Assembly (NCBI GenBank): GCA_951406725.2
Contig: OX597825.1
Location: 65,410,001-65,474,000, forward strand
Source of the DNA: Octopus vulgaris
Taxonomy: Eukaryota
Direction of reading: 5' to 3'
Length of the DNA stretch: 64,000 nt
Position numbers and translations under genes: made by a program. Every line of letters begins with the position of its first letter. Position 1 is the stretch's first letter. The notes beneath the pieces were generated by a model. That model did no database searches and was not told the origin of the DNA. It saw only the letters and a program-made list of their open reading frames with translations. Positions 16,206 through 54,220 of this stretch are shown one piece after another.

Positions 16206-18300
16206 ATTCAGTGAGACCCTGGACCCTATGATTCCAAGGATATTCAAGTCATTTAAACATTTGAATCCGCTAGTATGCTTTAGTACGCCTTAGCAGGTTG
16301 AGTTTCATTTTACTATAACCCATAGAAGATGCAAAATAGGTTGGCCACATAGTTTTGAGCACACAGTTTTACATCTGAAAAATAATGATTGTTCTACTAA
16401 TTAGCTAGCCATAAACACAAAGCCATGAGGTTGCCCACTTATGCGTCTTCTAAGGGTATAGTCAAATGAAAGCGCATCCGCTAACGCCTACTAGAAGGTT
16501 CAAAGGGTTAAAACACACAAGCCATTATAATTACATTTCGTTTATTTCGTCACAGCACAATCTATTATAAAGTATCAAAATTCGATTAACATAAAGTTTA
16601 GGGGATTTTTAAAATTATGAATCTAATTTAACCGGAAGTTACGACATTGACATGCCATAATTTCCATACAAAGGCAATAAAAGGGTGATGGATGCTTGCC
16701 AAGAAGAACTCAGGCAACAACTTGGGTCTATCGATGCTTTATTTTCGTCATATTTTCACGAACAGATGCAGCAAAACAAATTTAAAGATTGTGAAATATC
16801 TAATCGTAAATCTCATTTCATGCATCAACGGCTGTCATGTTTACCCGTAAAAGTGATTGTTTTCATCTGATATAAAATGTGTAGGAGGTTTATATTATAT
16901 AAACTATATACACAGATGTGGCTGTGTGGTTAAAATGCATGCTTTCCAACCATTGCCCTGTAATTTGAACAAGGATTTTCTACAATAAATCCGAGTCAAA
17001 CAAAGCCGTGGGAGTGATTTTAGTAGACAGAAACTGACAGAAGCTCATGGAGTTTTTATGCCCTTTTTTAACATCATAAGATAGTTGTAAACGATCTTCA
17101 CTGTCATACAAGCGATGTCGTTCGTTATAAGCCTTCCATTGAAAAACGTTTGACCATGAAAATTATTACATTGTTTACAAACAAGTAAGAGTTGAGAATA
17201 GGAAAGGCGTCGTTTTGTAGAAAATCTGCCCTAACACATTCCGTCTGATCCATGCGAGTATGGAAATACGGACGTTAAAAAATAATGAATGAGGATATTG
17301 TGTAGACCGATTATGCTATATAGATTGTTTACATGAAATTATCGGATTTCTTAGTCGTCACTACCAGTCAATTTGCATTCGGTTTGTGAACCCCTGACGT
17401 GCATATTCACACAAACAATTTTCGCTGCATACTTTTCAAACATGAAATATGAGCTACAGTGGTGATGTTCTCATTGACCTGGACACAGAATTGCGACGAA
17501 ACCTTTTCACACGGTTTAATCTATAATATTGCAATTCAATCTGTAATATAGTGTATATACTTTTAAACCATATGATAGAATGTACTTTAAGAACTACTAT
17601 AAAAATCATTGTAGCAGTTCTGTGAGTGTTTTTAAGTGGTTAATATGTGACTGCCATAAAGTAATTGTTTGTATACAGACTATGTTTTTAATACGAATGA
17701 ACAAACATTATTATGCCAGTATTCAAATGTTCGTGTGGGTATGTCTATTTGCCAAGAAATATGTATGTGAATATGTGTGTTTGTATACGTATGTAAATAT
17801 ACATTAGGATAAACATTTATTTAATCGACGCAATTGTGTCCAAGAAGCAGCAGTTTGACCTTGCGTGACTAGAGGTTACTGACCATGCCTGAAATTATTG
17901 TTTAGGCTTGGCGCATATATGCATGTATGTGAGGAAGTATGTGTGCGTTGTGCGTGAAAGTGTATCACTGTATACACATACATGGATGCGTATATTGGGA
18001 ATGGAACTATCTGTTGTATATATCCATGAATATTTATTTAGATAAACATTCACAAATGGTTATTTCCACTTTTTTCTGTCTCACTTAACACATACACTAT
18101 TTTTCATTCACACATACACGCGCGCGCGCACGCACATGCACAAACACGTACGCACACACACATAAATGTACGTGTATAAATGTGCATATACATATACATG
18201 CATACAGGCATCTTTATGTATATGTATATATATATATGTGTGTGTGTGTAAGTGTAGATATACAATGTGTGTGTGTAATATATAAGTATATATATATATA

Positions 18301-19034
18301 TACGCACACTTACATGGTTATAGTATAATTTTTAACGTATCGACCGGTTTTGCAATCGCTATTCATGATACAATGTTTAATTTATATGAAAATATATTTT
18401 TTCTTAAGAAGAAAATGGGTCCATGTTGTTTATAATGAGATTCACGAGTGAATGATTTTACAAGTTGACAAGTAAAGGGAGGTAATTGGTTGTTATTATT
18501 GTTATTGTTGTCTGTAAGGGAGATAACTGTTTAGGTTTTGGGTGGGGAAAAATATGTGTACAGAAAGGAGACAGGTTTTAAAAAAAGTGGGGGCCTTGTT
18601 TACTAGGGGATTTATGTACAGTGGTTTGTCTTTGCACTGGTAGAAAGGGAAGACTGTAAAATTTGGTTTGAAACATTTTTCTATGTGTTCACTAAGAGGT
18701 ATTTGTCTGTATTGCGGGAAACAGATTTGCTCCTTATGCAGGTAATTCTCTTCCTCAAAATTAAACCTTGTTTACTAAATTAGGTTCTCAGAGGAGACTT
18801 TTTAATTGTGAACCTCTGTACAGTGATGTAATACATTTTAACCGTTGGGTTCGTGGTTGTTTTGTAAAGCTTCGCATTTGTTAGTAGTCTCGTTAGCGAT
18901 TTGTCTTGTTTTTTGCAAAATTGGTTATGCGTGCTTATTCAGACGCGTTTTGTATTTTTCAATGAAAAATGAATAGCGATTGCGAAACCGGTCGATACAT
19001 TAAAAATTATACTATAACCATCTAAGGGTGCGTA
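18301..19034. repeat. 66-bp inverted repeat enclosing ~600 bp
   Basis: 18301-18366 is the reverse complement of 18969-19034 with few mismatches. Confidence 0.85.
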
Positions 19035-19143
19035 TTTTCCGTTTTTATTTTTCTTATATATATATGTAAGCGTTTAAGAGTCCGTAGGTTAGGAAAAAAA
19101 GCACTCGTATATCTGTCAATAAAGTGGGTGTATTAATCGAAGT

Positions 19144-19382
19144 GTACAGTGTTATATAACCATTACGGCCGATCTTACAAATCGGTTTGACACTAGGGGT
19201 TCAAAGGATTTTTGGTAACTGTCCGATTATGTAACCCATCAGAGGTAGTCGTTATGGAATTAAATATAGTGATCTCTGATGAGCGCAGGGTTACATGATC
19301 GGACTGTCGCTTAACACTCCGTTAAATACCGAGTGCGAAACCGATTGGTAAGATCGGCTGTAATGGATATATAATACTGTAC
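19144..19382. repeat. Fold-back inverted repeat (~100-bp arms) containing the hammerhead
   Basis: gtacagtgttatataaccattacggccgatcttacaaatcggttt pairs with aaaccgattggtaagatcggctgtaatggatatataatactgtac; gtccgattatgtaaccc pairs with gggttacatgatcggac. Confidence 0.85.
19271..19355 (+). ncRNA. Type I hammerhead ribozyme motif, intact core, long loop 2
   Basis: GATCT-CTGATGA-GCGC-(46 nt)-GTGC-GAAAC-C-GATT-G-GTA-AGATC; stems I, II and III all pair. Confidence 0.8.
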
Positions 19383-19794
19383 GCTTGATGAATATATATT
19401 TATATATATACATACATATATACATATACATGTATGTGCATACACACATTGTTGTGTAGGTGTATATACATATATATGCGTATGTGCATGTATATATTTT
19501 AGGAGAGGGGAAAAGAGAGAGTGCAAGGGAGAGACAGCAAGACACATCGTGAGTTAGACCATTTTTTTTTTGTTTGCATGTGTATGTGTCTGTGTGTCTG
19601 TGTGTGATATTTTGTAGCTTCCTTCGACAATGCATTATAAACAACATGGACCCATTTTCTTATTAAGAAAACATATATTTTCATATAAATTAAACTTTAT
19701 TCGGCTTAAAACTACACTTAGCACAGAAGCAATTGTTCAATCACGTCTATTTCACATATCTCACAACAACACCAACAACAACAACAACAATAAG

Positions 19795-19847
<53 letters not shown>

Positions 19848-21628: not shown

Positions 21629-21669
<41 letters not shown>

Positions 21670-21770
21670 AGATGAAGACGATGATATTATTTGTCATAAG
21701 GGTATGATTTGGAGGGGATATTAGAAGGATATAAAAATATTAATTATTAATTTTCTTTTGTTTTCTATAG

Positions 21771-21989
21771 GTTATATGGCGGAAAGCCTCCGATCCGAAC
21801 CCGCTTACGGTATCAGAAGAGCTTTATGTTGAAGACAGTACGTACAGTGTTCACAGAGTACCTTCTGCACACGAATGGAACCTCCAAATCAAAAATGTTC
21901 AGTGCAAACACAACGGTGTATAATAATGCCAAGTAATAATAATGAAGATCAGAAGACGATGTATTATCTTGTCATAAGGGTATGATTTG
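21771..21989 (+). CDS. Exon encoding the C-terminal part of Ig domain 1 of a Dpr/ZIG-8-like two-Ig protein; 3' end disrupted
   Basis: Acceptor ttttcttttgttttctatag|GTT and donor TTG|gtaagt. Translates VIWRKASDPNPLTVSEELYVEDSTYSVHRVPSAHEWNLQIKNVQCKHNGV**CQV, with the V-x-W, WNLQI and G-x-Y-x-C-Q-V pattern of Dpr/ZIG-8 Ig1, but TAA TAA where Y-E is expected. Absent from the ORF track. Confidence 0.85.
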
Positions 21990-22060
21990 GTAAGTTAGTT
22001 TGTGTTTATTTTGTTTTGTTTTGTTTTTTTACCTCTTTACCATGTCTCTCAATTTATACT

Positions 22061-26350: not shown

Positions 26351-26919
26351 CTGACCAAGGGAATTCAATCTCGAAGAGATTGTTTCTATATCTGCAAAAT
26401 GGCAGGTTCGTTAGCATAGTGGATAAAATGCGTAGTAATATTCCTTCCGACTTAACATTCAAAGTTAAAATGACGCAGAGGTTTTTGCCTTTTTTCCTTT
26501 CGAAGTCGATGAAATAAGTACCTTTTGAGCACTGCAATCGGTAAAATCTATTAGTGCCATACCCTAAAATATCAGGACCAAAAAGAAAAAAAAATTAACC
26601 ACTTGGTTCTTCTCTTGTCCAGTTGCACTATGCCACATAAATTCTAGGTGTAAGAATATTTTTAGAGTAAGTAGTATATCTATAACTACATTATGCAATG
26701 TGTTCTAGCATTTTTAAGACGCTGCGTTGGAGATTCGGTTAGTATTTCTGCTAGAACCAATGACCATGTATGGACACATGATCTTATTAATTTAACAGTT
26801 TGAAAGCTTATACAATGAAGTATAAGAAAAATTTCTAAACAATTATATTTCAACGGCTTCTTTATGTTTCGCAATAATTTTTATTTTATGTATCATTTTT
26901 ATTCTATTTCCATTTTCAG

Positions 26920-26940
26920 ACAAACCTCGAAATGATCCAG
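26920..26940 (+). CDS. 21-nt microexon, Ig1-Ig2 linker (xKPRNDP)
   Basis: Polypyrimidine tract ttctatttccattttcag|ACAAACCTCGAAATGATCCAG|gtaaga. Phase 1-1, no stop, joins in frame to the Ig2 exon (G+CA = Ala). Confidence 0.75.
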
Positions 26941-26949
26941 GTAAGATAA

Positions 26950-30396: not shown

Positions 30397-30431
30397 TCAC
30401 ATCGAAACTAACTAATTTTTCCTCTCACACC

Positions 30432-30483
30432 GTCTCCGATGAAGGGATAATATTAATTAATATTCTAGAAACAGCTGTAAGAC
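30432..30483 (+). ncRNA. Type I hammerhead motif with U4C core change
   Basis: GTCT-CCGATGA-...aatatt-aatt-aatatt...-GAAAC-AGCT-GTA-AGAC; palindromic ACAGCTGT stem III. Confidence 0.6.
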
Positions 30484-30573
30484 CTTCTATCTATAAATGC
30501 TCTAATATCTATACACCCTTGGTTTTTTATCTTATTACACAAAAAATTCTTATATAGACAGATAGATAGATCA

Positions 30574-40228: not shown

Positions 40229-41175
40229 CACACACGCATCATCATCCAGTATTTTAAATCCGGATTTTGTCCTCGTTAAAGGGGGTTGCCGGATCTACCT
40301 CAATGCCATAGCAACCGAAGTAGGCAGGTGCAGCCCACCCCCAACCTTTGGTCTGGCTGGTGCTCATTCTTCCTTGCTACCATGTGGCTTTATTGGAGCT
40401 GAATTTTCTACGGAGAGCATGCCCTTGCTTACCCCCAATCTCAGTATCTAGACATGAGTGGTCCTGAGACCAAGGCCTCTAACACGATTTTTAAGAAATG
40501 TGGTGGAAGACTAGTTCAGGAAGGCAGGGACGCTACTCCCTGAGACCCCTTTCAGAGCCCCGCTACCTAAATAAAATATATTGTTACAGAAAATAGACAA
40601 AACGGCAAGTGAAAGATGAGGTTATTTTTGAAAAAGTCACCTGCTATGAATGACAATGATTGTACAGCCTCTTATCAGTAAGGTACGGGTGCAAGGTGAG
40701 TCGAAACGATCGTAGTGGTTTTGAATAAAGAGCCTCGTGAATACAATTTTCCGTTTCTCAACTTCATATGGATAGATAAATAGATAGATAGATAGATTGA
40801 TAGAAAGCCGCAAAAATATCTACAAATACTTACACATGTATATCAGTGTAGATGTATGTTTGTGCGTATATGTGTAGTTGTATGGAAACACAATTACGTA
40901 TTATGCGTATATTGGTTCCTGTATGGGTGTGCATGTGTAAGTGCGCGCGCACGTGCGTGGACGCGTGTCTGTCTGTGAGTATACCTTATACAATTTCAGT
41001 TCTCAATATCTTTATCATTTGTAATCATGTAGAATTGAATTTTAGTATTTTCCACTTATATTTTGTAATTATTTTTTTTTTCTAATTACATTGTTTCATT
41101 ATTTTTTTTTTAAATGCTTTATTCATTCATATAATTATTTATTCATTTATTTATTTATTCATTGTTATTCCGTAG

Positions 41176-41463
41176 CAATCACCATATCAGGCAAATCGTA
41201 TGTTGACAAGGATTTAGCCATTAGACTAACGTGCAATGCAAGCGGTTTGTCTCACCCACATGTTGCAGATTGGTTCAAAGATGGACAGAAAATCAACGCA
41301 AATAAAATAAAGCAAATATCCATAACCGGAAGTTCGTCATACGAAACCGGAACGATATCGAGCACGCTGGTCATAAAACACAGCAAACTCACAGATCAAG
41401 GAACGTACATCTGTCGAACCTCTGAGTCTCTTGTAACCAGTATGAAAGTAAATGTGCTAGACG
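41176..41463 (+). CDS. Exon encoding Ig domain 2 of the Dpr/ZIG-8-like protein
   Basis: cgtag|CA ATC...GAC G|gtaagt, 288 nt, phase 1-1. Translates AITISGKSYVDKDLAIRLTCNASG...DWFKDG...STLVIKHSKLTDQGTYICRTSESLVTSMKVNVLD with the canonical Ig Cys, Trp and D-x-G-x-Y-x-C. Confidence 0.93.
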
Positions 41464-41637
41464 GTAAGTTATCTTCACTGACATCACACAAACCTCAAAC
41501 AAAAAAAAAAGAAATATATTATTAGCAATAACAACAATAACAACAATGGCAACCATGAAAACATAAAAAAAACATCAGTGTTTTAAATTTATTTTTATAG
41601 CGTTTTATCTACAATAATAATAATAATAATGATAATG

Positions 41638-42799: not shown

Positions 42800-42948
42800 C
42801 GGTGAGGTAAGAAGCTTACTTCCCAACCACATGCTTCCGGGGTCAGTCTCACTGCGTGGAACTTTGAGTGTTTTCTACTATGGCTTCGGGCCGACCAAAG
42901 CCTTGTGAGTGGATTTGGTAGACGGAAACTGAAAGAAGCCTGTCATGT

Positions 42949-42980
<32 letters not shown>

Positions 42981-43170
42981 ACATATCTGTGCGTCTGTGT
43001 TTGTCCCCCACCACCGCTTGACAGCTGATGCTGGTGTACTTACGTTCGGCAAAAGAGACCGATATTATAAGCACTAGGTTTACAAAGAATAAGTACTGGG
43101 GGTCGATTTGTTTGACAAAAAGGCGGCGCTCCAGCATGGCCGCAGTCAAATGACTGAAACACGTAGAAGA
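42800..43170 (+). mobile_element. SINE family A
   Basis: gccttgtgagtggatttggtagacggaaactgaaagaagcc core and ccagcatggccgcagtcaaatgactgaaac tail. Confidence 0.8.
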
Positions 43171-43374
43171 ATAAACGAATAAAGTGAAGAGGAGTCGCGC
43201 ACCATCAACCTCACTCTCTCGTCCGTGAGCATCTTCAGTCCGGTGGTAAGAGCAGGTCAGGACGATTGGGCGTGGAGACGGATGCAGTGGACGACCAAGA
43301 TGAGATACGTTATTCATCTGGGTCCCTGCAGCCCACAATGCATTGCTGCAGCAGTTTTGAACCTCTCTTTGCTC

Positions 43375-43836
43375 TCTTTTACTCTTTTACTTGTTTCAGT
43401 CATTTGACTGCGACAATGCTGGAGCACCGCCTTTAGTCGAGCAAATCGACTCCAGGACTTGTTTCAGTCACTTGACTGTGGCCATGCTGGAGCAGCACCT
43501 TTTTTAGTCGAGCAAATCGACCCCAGGACTTATTATTTGTAAGCCTAGTACTTATTCTATCGGTGTCTTTTGCCGAACCGCTAAGTTACGGGAACGTAAC
43601 CAGCATCGATTGTCAAGCGATGTTGGGTGGACAAACACAGACACACAAACATATACACATATATACATATATACGACGGGCTTCTTTCAGTTTCCGACTA
43701 CCAAATCCACTCACAAGGCTTCGGTCTGCCCGAGGCTATAGTAGAAGAAACTTGCCGAAGGTTCCACGCAATGCGAATGAACCCGGAACCATGTGGTTGG
43801 TTAGCAAGCTACCTACCACACAGCCACTCCTGCGCC
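43375..43836 (-). mobile_element. SINE family A with duplicated 3' end
   Basis: Reverse complement of family A; tail segment repeated at about 43390 and 43460. Confidence 0.8.
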
Positions 43837-52678: not shown

Positions 52679-53162
52679 CACATAAATGTGAAACAAGTTG
52701 GGAAAACATAGTACTCGAATACAGGAGGTAGAGTGATATGCTTCATTATTATCAAGGTTGTGAGGCGGCGAGCTGGCAGAATCATTAGCACGCCAGGCAA
52801 AATGCTTAGCAGTATTTCGTCTGTCGTTACGTTGTGAGTTCAAATTCCGCCGAGGTCGACGTTGCCTTTCATCCTTTCGGGGGTCGATAAATTAAGTACC
52901 AGTTACGCACTGGGGTCGATGTAATCGACTTAATACCTATGTCTGTCCTTGTTTGTCCCTTCTGTGTTTAACCCCTTGTGGGTAATAAAGAAATAGGTAT
53001 TTCGAATGCTGCTGTGATCTGTGTTCAAATTCCGCCGAGCTTGACTTTACATTTCATCCTTTTTGGAGTCGATTAAATAAGTACTATTTACGCACTGGGG
53101 CCGCGAAAATTTCAGGCATTGTGCCTACAATAGAAATGATTATTATTAAGGCTGCAAAAAAG

Positions 53163-53200
53163 CTGCTACTCAGAGTTTCACTTTCCTGTTCATCAGACAG
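53163..53200 (-). ncRNA. Minimal type I hammerhead motif
   Basis: Minus strand CTGT-CTGATGA-AC-aggaaa-GT-GAAAC-TCTGA-GTA-GCAG. Confidence 0.65.
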
Positions 53201-53265
53201 TTTTTAGATTGAGAAAGGAAACAAAATAATATCTATATGTATGAAATATACAATCTACGTATATA

Positions 53266-53667
53266 GGCGCAGGAGTGGCTGTGTGGTAAGTAGCTTGCTA
53301 ACCAACCACATGGTTCCGGGTTCAGTCCCACTGCGTGGCACCTTGGGCGAGTGTCTTCTACTACAGCCTCGGGCCGACCAATGCCTTGTGAGTGGATTTG
53401 GTAGACGGAAACTGAAAGAAGCCCGTCGTATATATGTATATATATATATGTATGTGTATGTGTCTGTGTTTGTCCCCCTAGCATTGCTTGACAACCGATG
53501 CTGGTGTGTTTATGTCCCCGTTACTTAGCGGTTCGGCAAAAGAGATCGATAGATTAAGTACTGGGCTTACAAAAGAATAAGTCCTGGGGGCCGAGTTGCT
53601 CGATTAAAGGCGGTGCTCCAGCATGGCCGCAGTCAAATGACTGAAACAAGTAAAAGAGTAAAAGAGT
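53266..53667 (+). mobile_element. SINE family A, full length
   Basis: ggcgcaggagtggctgtgtggtaag head through the (gtaaaaga)n tail. Confidence 0.88.
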
Positions 53668-53986
53668 AAACCATCAATAGCATCGTAGGACTTCAACCAC
53701 CCTCAGATGAAAATGGCAGAATACATACATACATACATACATATAAATATATATATATATATAAGCACATAAATGTGAAACAAGTTGGGAAAGCATAGTA
53801 CTCGAATACAGGAGGTAGAGTGATATGCTTCATTATTATCAAGGTTGTGAGGCGGCGAGCTGGCAGAATCATTAGCACGCCAGGCAAAATGCTTAGCAGT
53901 ATTTCGAATGCTGCTGCGATCTGTGTTCAAATTCCGCGGCGGTTGACTTTACATTTCATCCTTTCGGAGTCGATTAAATAAGTACC

Positions 53987-54220
53987 TATTTCTTTATTAC
54001 CCACAAGGGGCTAAACACAGAGAGAACAAACAAGGACAGACATAGGTATTAAGTCGATTCCATCGACCCCAGTGCGTAACTGGTACTTAATTTATCGACC
54101 CCGAAAGGATGAAAGGCAAAGTCGACCTCGGCGGAATTTGAACTCACAACGTAACGCAGACGAAATACCGCTAAGCATTTCGCCCGGCGTGCTAACGTTT
54201 CTGCCAGCTCGCCGCCTTTA
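53987..54220 (-). mobile_element. SINE family C (Meta/MESC-like core), young copy
   Basis: 15-bp TSD gattaaataagtacc / gattgaataagtacc; gcctttcatcctttcggggtcgataaattaagtaccag core. Other copies near 2335(+), 9550(-), 22727(-), 27275(+), 32366(-), 37764(+), 38007(+), 39258(+), 41862(-), 42170(-), 52762(+). Confidence 0.88.

Follow-up and report, generated by a model that had tools for sequence, protein, structure and literature searches.

Two truncated copies of a hammerhead ribozyme repeat lie head to head in the window, the whole stretch of 64,000 nucleotides of Octopus vulgaris DNA analysed here, and we consider it probable that they are pseudo-LTR copies (pLTRs) of a Penelope-like element (PLE) which were laid down by one inverted insertion and have been decaying since. 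The upstream arm (19131-19256, minus strand) is an inverted copy of the hammerhead module that is dead as a ribozyme, the downstream arm (19265-19394, plus strand) carries a type I hammerhead, and the two meet at an 8-nt loop (19257-19264), which forms the centre of the palindrome and the head-to-head junction in the predicted fold. Of the aligned positions of the two complementary arms, 93 of 113 are paired (82.3%; BLASTN self-match, E 5e-36). Since an inner stem of 9 bp (19248-19256 with 19265-19273; five Watson-Crick and four G-U pairs) closes the loop, 19131-19394 is a single near-continuous palindrome. The preliminary description of this DNA had read the minus strand of 19144-19244 as a degenerate copy of the module, and the letters are indeed as given there: The inverted copy is present, the match extends somewhat further (19131-19244 against 19274-19394), and the distance of 30 bp stated between the copies corresponds to the 29 nt that separate the two CTCTGAT blocks. 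The fold-back structure proposed at the same time is also what folding predicts, the plus strand forming one hairpin of -131.2 kcal/mol as compared with -61.6 +/- 4.5 kcal/mol for shuffled sequences (z about -15.7; none of 200 shuffles was as stable). In the comparison of the strands, the plus strand folds with about -131.5 kcal/mol and the minus strand with -111.2 kcal/mol.

A palindrome of this kind might be an artefact of the assembly, i. e. a fold-back chimera, and there is an apparent local assembly error 2.4 kb away in the window. Two observations contradict this idea: The arms diverge by 18%, and the centre is crossed by contigs from two DNA runs, one from X1, a run that is possibly related to the source of the window, spanning 19036-19361 with no other letters and a single gap, and one from X6, which carries a different species label, spanning 19118-19363 with 4 of 246 letters differing. 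These contigs largely refute an assembly origin of the hairpin, which we reject as exceedingly improbable. Through the X6 contig the locus is common to the window and a second species label, with no neutral yardstick to set the 4 of 246 letters against.

The ribozyme of the downstream arm (19265-19362, plus strand), identified by a strict descriptor and by folding, consists of stem I (19265-19275/19351-19362; 11 pairs and one bulge), the CUGAUGA core (19276-19282), stem II (19283-19286/19333-19336; 4 bp with a 46-nt loop), GAAA (19337-19340) and a palindromic stem III (19340-19349; 3 bp with a 4-nt loop), with the cut predicted after A19350 in the GUA at 19348-19350. The rest of the arm (19363-19394, plus strand) merges into a TA-rich microsatellite (19392-19497). 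CUGANGA, GAAA, UH and G10.1-C11.1 are all in place, and the three stems with an open stem I make up the type I layout. The strict type I descriptor had two matches in the 64-kb window and none in 100 shuffles. Rfam returned no hammerhead at gathering score in the 64 kb, nor any among its 49 weak matches in 18200-19800, probably because of the long loop II; for type I hammerheads, an Rfam match is a proxy and not a defining trait. The miRNA-like Rfam matches at 19400-19500 were dismissed as microsatellite noise. Folded without the upstream arm, the ribozyme structure costs 1.6-2.5 kcal/mol and accounts for 2-7% of the ensemble. The stem III segment (19340-19349) is self-complementary, the homodimer reaching -12.4 and the monomer -0.9 kcal/mol, and it can pair between two copies. 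According to passages of PMC4209133, a short helix III hinders cleavage of the monomer, and a single minimal motif is inactive. As modelled, the ribozyme of the plus arm is of the dimer-dependent design described there, its self-cleavage being a prediction, and with a 3-bp palindromic stem III of this type it would be weak on its own. A pattern scan of viral contigs for the hammerhead family gave 0 loci, and all 17 of 17 pattern loci in metagenomes were rejected as relatives, as they have only the short pattern in common with it (best BLASTN E 0.23).

The upstream arm has lost this capacity: Because a 7-nt deletion (GAGCGCA) takes the end of CUGAUGA together with the 5' strand of stem II, and GAAA reads CAAA, 19131-19256 cannot act as a ribozyme. 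The damage to the core thus sits in the antisense copy, whereas the sense core is whole.

Both arms are members of a dispersed repeat family in Octopus. The family was surveyed with contigs from 4 runs, out of 24 listed, which were aligned to 18300-19400 at a likeness of 80%. On this 1.1-kb stretch, which also includes a neighbouring element, 2,480 (X1) and 2,774 (X6) contigs were placed; many of them lay on the two arms, where up to 92 (X1) and 100 (X6) contigs show the letter of the family at one and the same position. Contig depth and alignment define a 3' continuation of the minus-strand copy at 19055-19130: Most family contigs end at a depth step near 19094-19100, and a minority extend to about 19055, at a (TA)n run (19055-19065). 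A second TA-rich run starts at 19392, so both copies in the window terminate at TA-rich runs, and beyond 19386 the loose ends of paralogs follow the minus arm and pass into TA or GT microsatellites. At their other ends, the two copies start just 5' of the core and meet at the 8-nt loop. The minus copy reaches the main end of the family about 37 bp past the paired part; the end of the plus copy is blurred by AT-rich sequence.

This architecture has the traits of PLE pLTRs, namely a hammerhead within a dispersed multi-copy repeat, an adjacent inverted and 5'-truncated copy at the 5' end, and microsatellite ends. An inverted insertion would lay down two truncated pLTR copies head to head, and the remark in the preliminary description that the geometry fits an inverted Penelope pseudo-LTR has turned out to be the best explanation, given the inverted truncated partner, the microsatellite ends and the type of the ribozyme. 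Similar arrangements may be present elsewhere. Among the 15 listed of 70 joints, 7 connect an antisense arm with a sense arm at other breakpoints, and in 3 of these 7 the shorter side measures at least 33 letters in each of the two DNA runs. In addition, a contig of X6 runs through the centre of the palindrome, from which it differs by 21 letters and 10 gaps. Together they suggest that head-to-head forms exist at further loci, with the reservation that the joints come from placement at 80% likeness, that the contigs do not determine the intervening letters, and that repeats can yield joints of low likeness.

The repeat could also be the unit of a non-LTR retrozyme or a fold-back element of some other non-autonomous kind, with the palindrome resulting from a local snap-back duplication. 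The hammerhead is of type I and has a helix III, like those of invertebrate retrozymes (PMC7229834), which agrees with this proposal, as do the lack of a linked ORF and the one paralogous contig that spans a similar centre. Against it, retrozymes are defined as tandem units (PMC7229834; 10.64898/2026.07.22.740005): A retrozyme should comprise two or more units arranged head to tail with a complete hammerhead in each, and across 19131-19390 we found no tandem array at the locus and only one intact core. Moreover, microsatellite ends and an inverted truncated partner are PLE traits (PMC8557442). We consider a retrozyme or snap-back origin quite unlikely; the difference is in any case a small one, as retrozymes have themselves been proposed to derive from PLE pLTRs (10.64898/2026.07.22.740005, in part).

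The assignment to the PLEs rests on the architecture and the ribozyme type, because the endonuclease remnant next to the palindrome has terminal repeats of its own and no ORF is tied to the hammerhead repeat. This remnant (18628-18771, minus strand) is what is left of the C-terminal GIY-YIG endonuclease of an apparently different Penelope-like element. Word search and Pfam found nothing with this piece; phmmer identified 27 relatives, six of the seven that were scanned had a GIY-YIG domain, and the relatives include P0009 and P0030, which combine RVT_1 with a C-terminal GIY-YIG. The element is flanked by a terminal repeat at 18300-18366 (minus strand) and an inverted terminal copy at 18969-19035 (plus strand), which are identical at 63 of 67 positions, with 20 bp between the latter and the (TA)n run that ends the palindrome. 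A hammerhead-like motif is present in the repeat at 18300-18366 with its 3' half, the CUGANGA half being missing from both copies. The possibility that the hammerhead repeat belongs to the same family as this element was rejected, since the resemblance is limited to 18-19 nt around GCGAAACCG. The endonuclease element is not connected with the hammerhead family by any of the 15 joints listed out of 70, and no reverse transcriptase or endonuclease ORF tied to the hammerhead repeat family was found. The stretch 18300-19035 is rearranged: According to the contig joints, other copies place the C-terminal segment of the ORF (18969-18917) behind the endonuclease motif, and here it stands ahead of the linker. 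Another inverted pair of 66 nt (18372-18437/19633-19698, 63 of 66 identical) interleaves with the 18300/18969 pair, so that simple nesting does not describe the three inverted repeats. Inverted pairs at short distance are frequent in the window: Eight BLASTN rows of at least 60 nt, with partners no more than 2 kb apart, come from about five places.

Within a zig-8-like gene, the hairpin is likely to occupy a long intron in sense orientation, 2.4 kb before the next exon. This gene encodes two Ig domains, one in the exon at 21771-21935 (plus strand) and the second in the exon at 41175-41465 (plus strand), which is 98-99% identical to the Octopus proteins P0001 and P0002; the Octopus proteins matching this exon bear the names zig-8-like or cell adhesion molecule 2. 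A likely microexon (DKPRNDP, 26919-26942, plus strand) is located between the Ig domains. For residues 11-54 of P0001 the window offers no counterpart, the best score being 41 as compared with 228 for the self-match, and we therefore place the preceding exon upstream of the window. As a caveat, the exon at 21771-21935 is interrupted in the window by two in-frame stop codons, its 3' end is scrambled, and this end (21920-21990) resembles a stretch of the intron (21645-21712) located 278 bp upstream beside an (AAT)n run. P0001 is intact in this region; P0002 uses another frame at the start of the exon and omits the remainder. The anomaly is apparently a local error of assembly or of polishing.

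As the exons of the host gene are on the plus strand, this is the strand that is likely transcribed at the hairpin. It had been claimed that the upstream arm is made first in a plus-strand transcript, pairs with stems I and III and thereby silences cleavage. The arm does lie upstream on the likely transcribed strand, and folding predicts just such a capture: When prefixes of the transcript are folded, the arm takes the CUGAU core as soon as this has emerged (P 0.99), and stems I and III follow later. In the pre-mRNA of the zig-8-like gene, the pairing of the arm with the core during transcription would then leave the ribozyme permanently off. Once the arm is included, the ribozyme structure comes to lie 42.7 kcal/mol higher in energy than the hairpin (P about 1e-30); a conformational switch has two folds of similar energy, and a gap of this size puts the second state beyond reach. 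The arm is thus predicted to keep the ribozyme blocked for good rather than to switch it. The block would be a by-product of the geometry of insertion.

The further claim of an off-switch could not be upheld, in view of this energy gap, a weak dimer-dependent ribozyme with a decayed stem II, and a decay of the arms that is uncompensated. The same holds for its regulated form, according to which the arm silences the ribozyme and ADAR editing or a helicase frees it under some condition to cut the pre-mRNA. This scenario would profit from an arm that precedes the ribozyme, from the intact core, from a host that is an Ig cell-surface gene and from a hairpin that satisfies the rule of 80% over 50 nt for potential double-stranded RNA (as worded in part of PMC9989829). 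The second state lying out of reach, the decay of stem II with no compensation between the arms, and the lower editing of diverged repeats (PMC9989829, in part) make it very unlikely.

Several lines of evidence suggest that the arms have likely been decaying without constraint since the insertion, as judged from their letters. First, the identity between the arms is 82.3%, and that between the arms and 15 listed paralog pieces, which are the longest shown and not a random draw, is 80-89%. Second, the 40 difference rows listed, out of 181, include eight majority differences from the family that fall inside the arms; they are private, four to each arm, and none is compensated. In all eight cases, the partner arm has kept the family letter and a Watson-Crick pair is lost, two of the eight turning into G-U. 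Third, the family letters, which the minus arm keeps as well, would lengthen stem II by four pairs, and only two of these four are retained by the plus copy. Finally, the probability of an untouched 13-nt core at the observed divergence is about 0.3. Some observations go against unconstrained decay: a mild excess of G-U mismatches on the plus strand, the better folding of this strand, the confinement of the damage to the antisense core, and the presence of the locus under a second species label. On the plus strand, there are seven G-U and three A-C mismatches (p 0.34), or 11 and three if the inner stem, which was chosen by the fold itself, is included (p 0.057); the asymmetry is not significant in either count. 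A mild G-U excess of such a kind could come from a mutation bias linked to transcription.

It is tempting to speculate that the origin was the same but that the antisense arm let the insertion survive, as a self-masked ribozyme in sense orientation would be tolerated and an unmasked one purged. We regard such a filter, which would be passive and not a switch, as unlikely. In its favour, the hairpin is likely intronic and sense, the masking is predicted to be complete, the plus strand shows the mild G-U excess, and retrozymes are reported to be excluded from introns and exons (10.64898/2026.07.22.740005, in part). There are two other motifs in the window. The descriptor also accepts a second minimal Penelope-type hammerhead at 12851-12817 (minus strand), which has a 5-bp stem I, a 6-bp stem II and no loop III and of which the window contains no similar copy; a looser, hammerhead-like motif at 57199-57160 (minus strand) has an intact core, a palindromic helix III and a weak stem I, and a copy of it with 74% identity lies in the opposite orientation at 30422-30505. 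Both are antisense to the zig-8-like gene and have no adjacent inverted partner, so that the only sense motif is the masked one, as a filter would have it; three motifs carry no statistical weight. Furthermore, the arms have not been kept matched, and there may be little to mask if a lone hammerhead of the dimer type cleaves poorly or not at all, as stated in passages of PMC4209133. An inverted PLE insertion as a built-in safety catch for a sense intronic ribozyme, in the boldest form with ADAR editing that tunes the cutting of the pre-mRNA, is an idea to which we give little credence. If a filter did operate genome-wide, it would explain the persistence of self-cleaving repeats inside the very long introns of cephalopods and would provide a direct test of PLE hammerhead cleavage in vivo. 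Under the preferred reading of two decaying pLTR copies from one insertion, the locus is ordinary transposon debris, useful in that it documents octopus hammerheads with a long loop II, a family not detected by Rfam.

Editing of the hairpin by ADAR is plausible, as for any hairpin of this kind, and would probably be the ordinary editing of repeat-derived intronic double-stranded RNA. It would strike adenosines of the hammerhead core as well. By the rule given in part of PMC9989829, a nearby inverted copy with 80% over 50 nt is a potential double-stranded RNA, and the octopus hairpin has 82.3% over 113 nt; the same source, in part, states that editability drops as the divergence of the repeats rises. 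The counts of A>G/T>C places were 11/19 and 9/14 in the presumed-RNA runs X12 and X17, similar to the 12/17 and 14/17 in the DNA runs. Over the arms, the listed X12 and X17 pieces have 11-20 letters other than those of the window; because these pieces are paralogs, the counts are uninformative on editing or expression at this locus. None of the listed RNA contigs matched the hairpin at 19131-19394. Larger inverted repeats of other families at 42802-43821 and at 52763-54217, the copies of each lying within 1 kb of each other and being up to 94% identical over 240 nt, are likely to be better ADAR substrates than the hammerhead hairpin.

Our search of the open-access literature retrieved no account of octopus PLE hammerheads or of the gating of a genomic hammerhead by an antisense arm; the following comparisons are with related systems. 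Compared with ADAR substrates formed by inverted repeats (PMC9989829), the octopus locus shares a nearby inverted repeat with at least 80% over at least 50 nt and a likely intronic position, but with an arm divergence of 18% it is older and likely less edited, and it is only a candidate substrate. Non-LTR retrozymes (PMC7229834; bioRxiv 10.64898/2026.07.22.740005) resemble it as non-coding repeats with a type I hammerhead that occur in molluscs; in contrast, the octopus copies stand head to head with one dead core and could not release a circular monomer. The closest parallels are found among the PLEs. Minimal hammerhead pairs on opposite strands and 100-700 bp apart have been ascribed to truncated PLEs (Cervera and De la Pena 2014; PMC4209133). 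The pLTR hammerheads described there have in common with ours the type I topology, a small palindromic helix III, dispersed and variable copies, and close motifs on opposite strands, whereas the octopus pair has a 46-nt insert in loop II, a spacing of 8 nt instead of about 100-700 bp, and no ORF linked to the family. Hammerhead cleavage has been reported to be dispensable for insertion in vitro, with no reads ending at the cut site (PMC11167929). Finally, PLE insertions can carry an inverted 5'-truncated copy immediately adjacent and are biased towards microsatellites (Craig et al. 2021; PMC8557442). Relative to these insertions, the tail of 30-40 bp is not clearly delimited in the octopus copy, and both copies are reduced to the ribozyme module, which makes the locus a pure palindrome of 264 bp.
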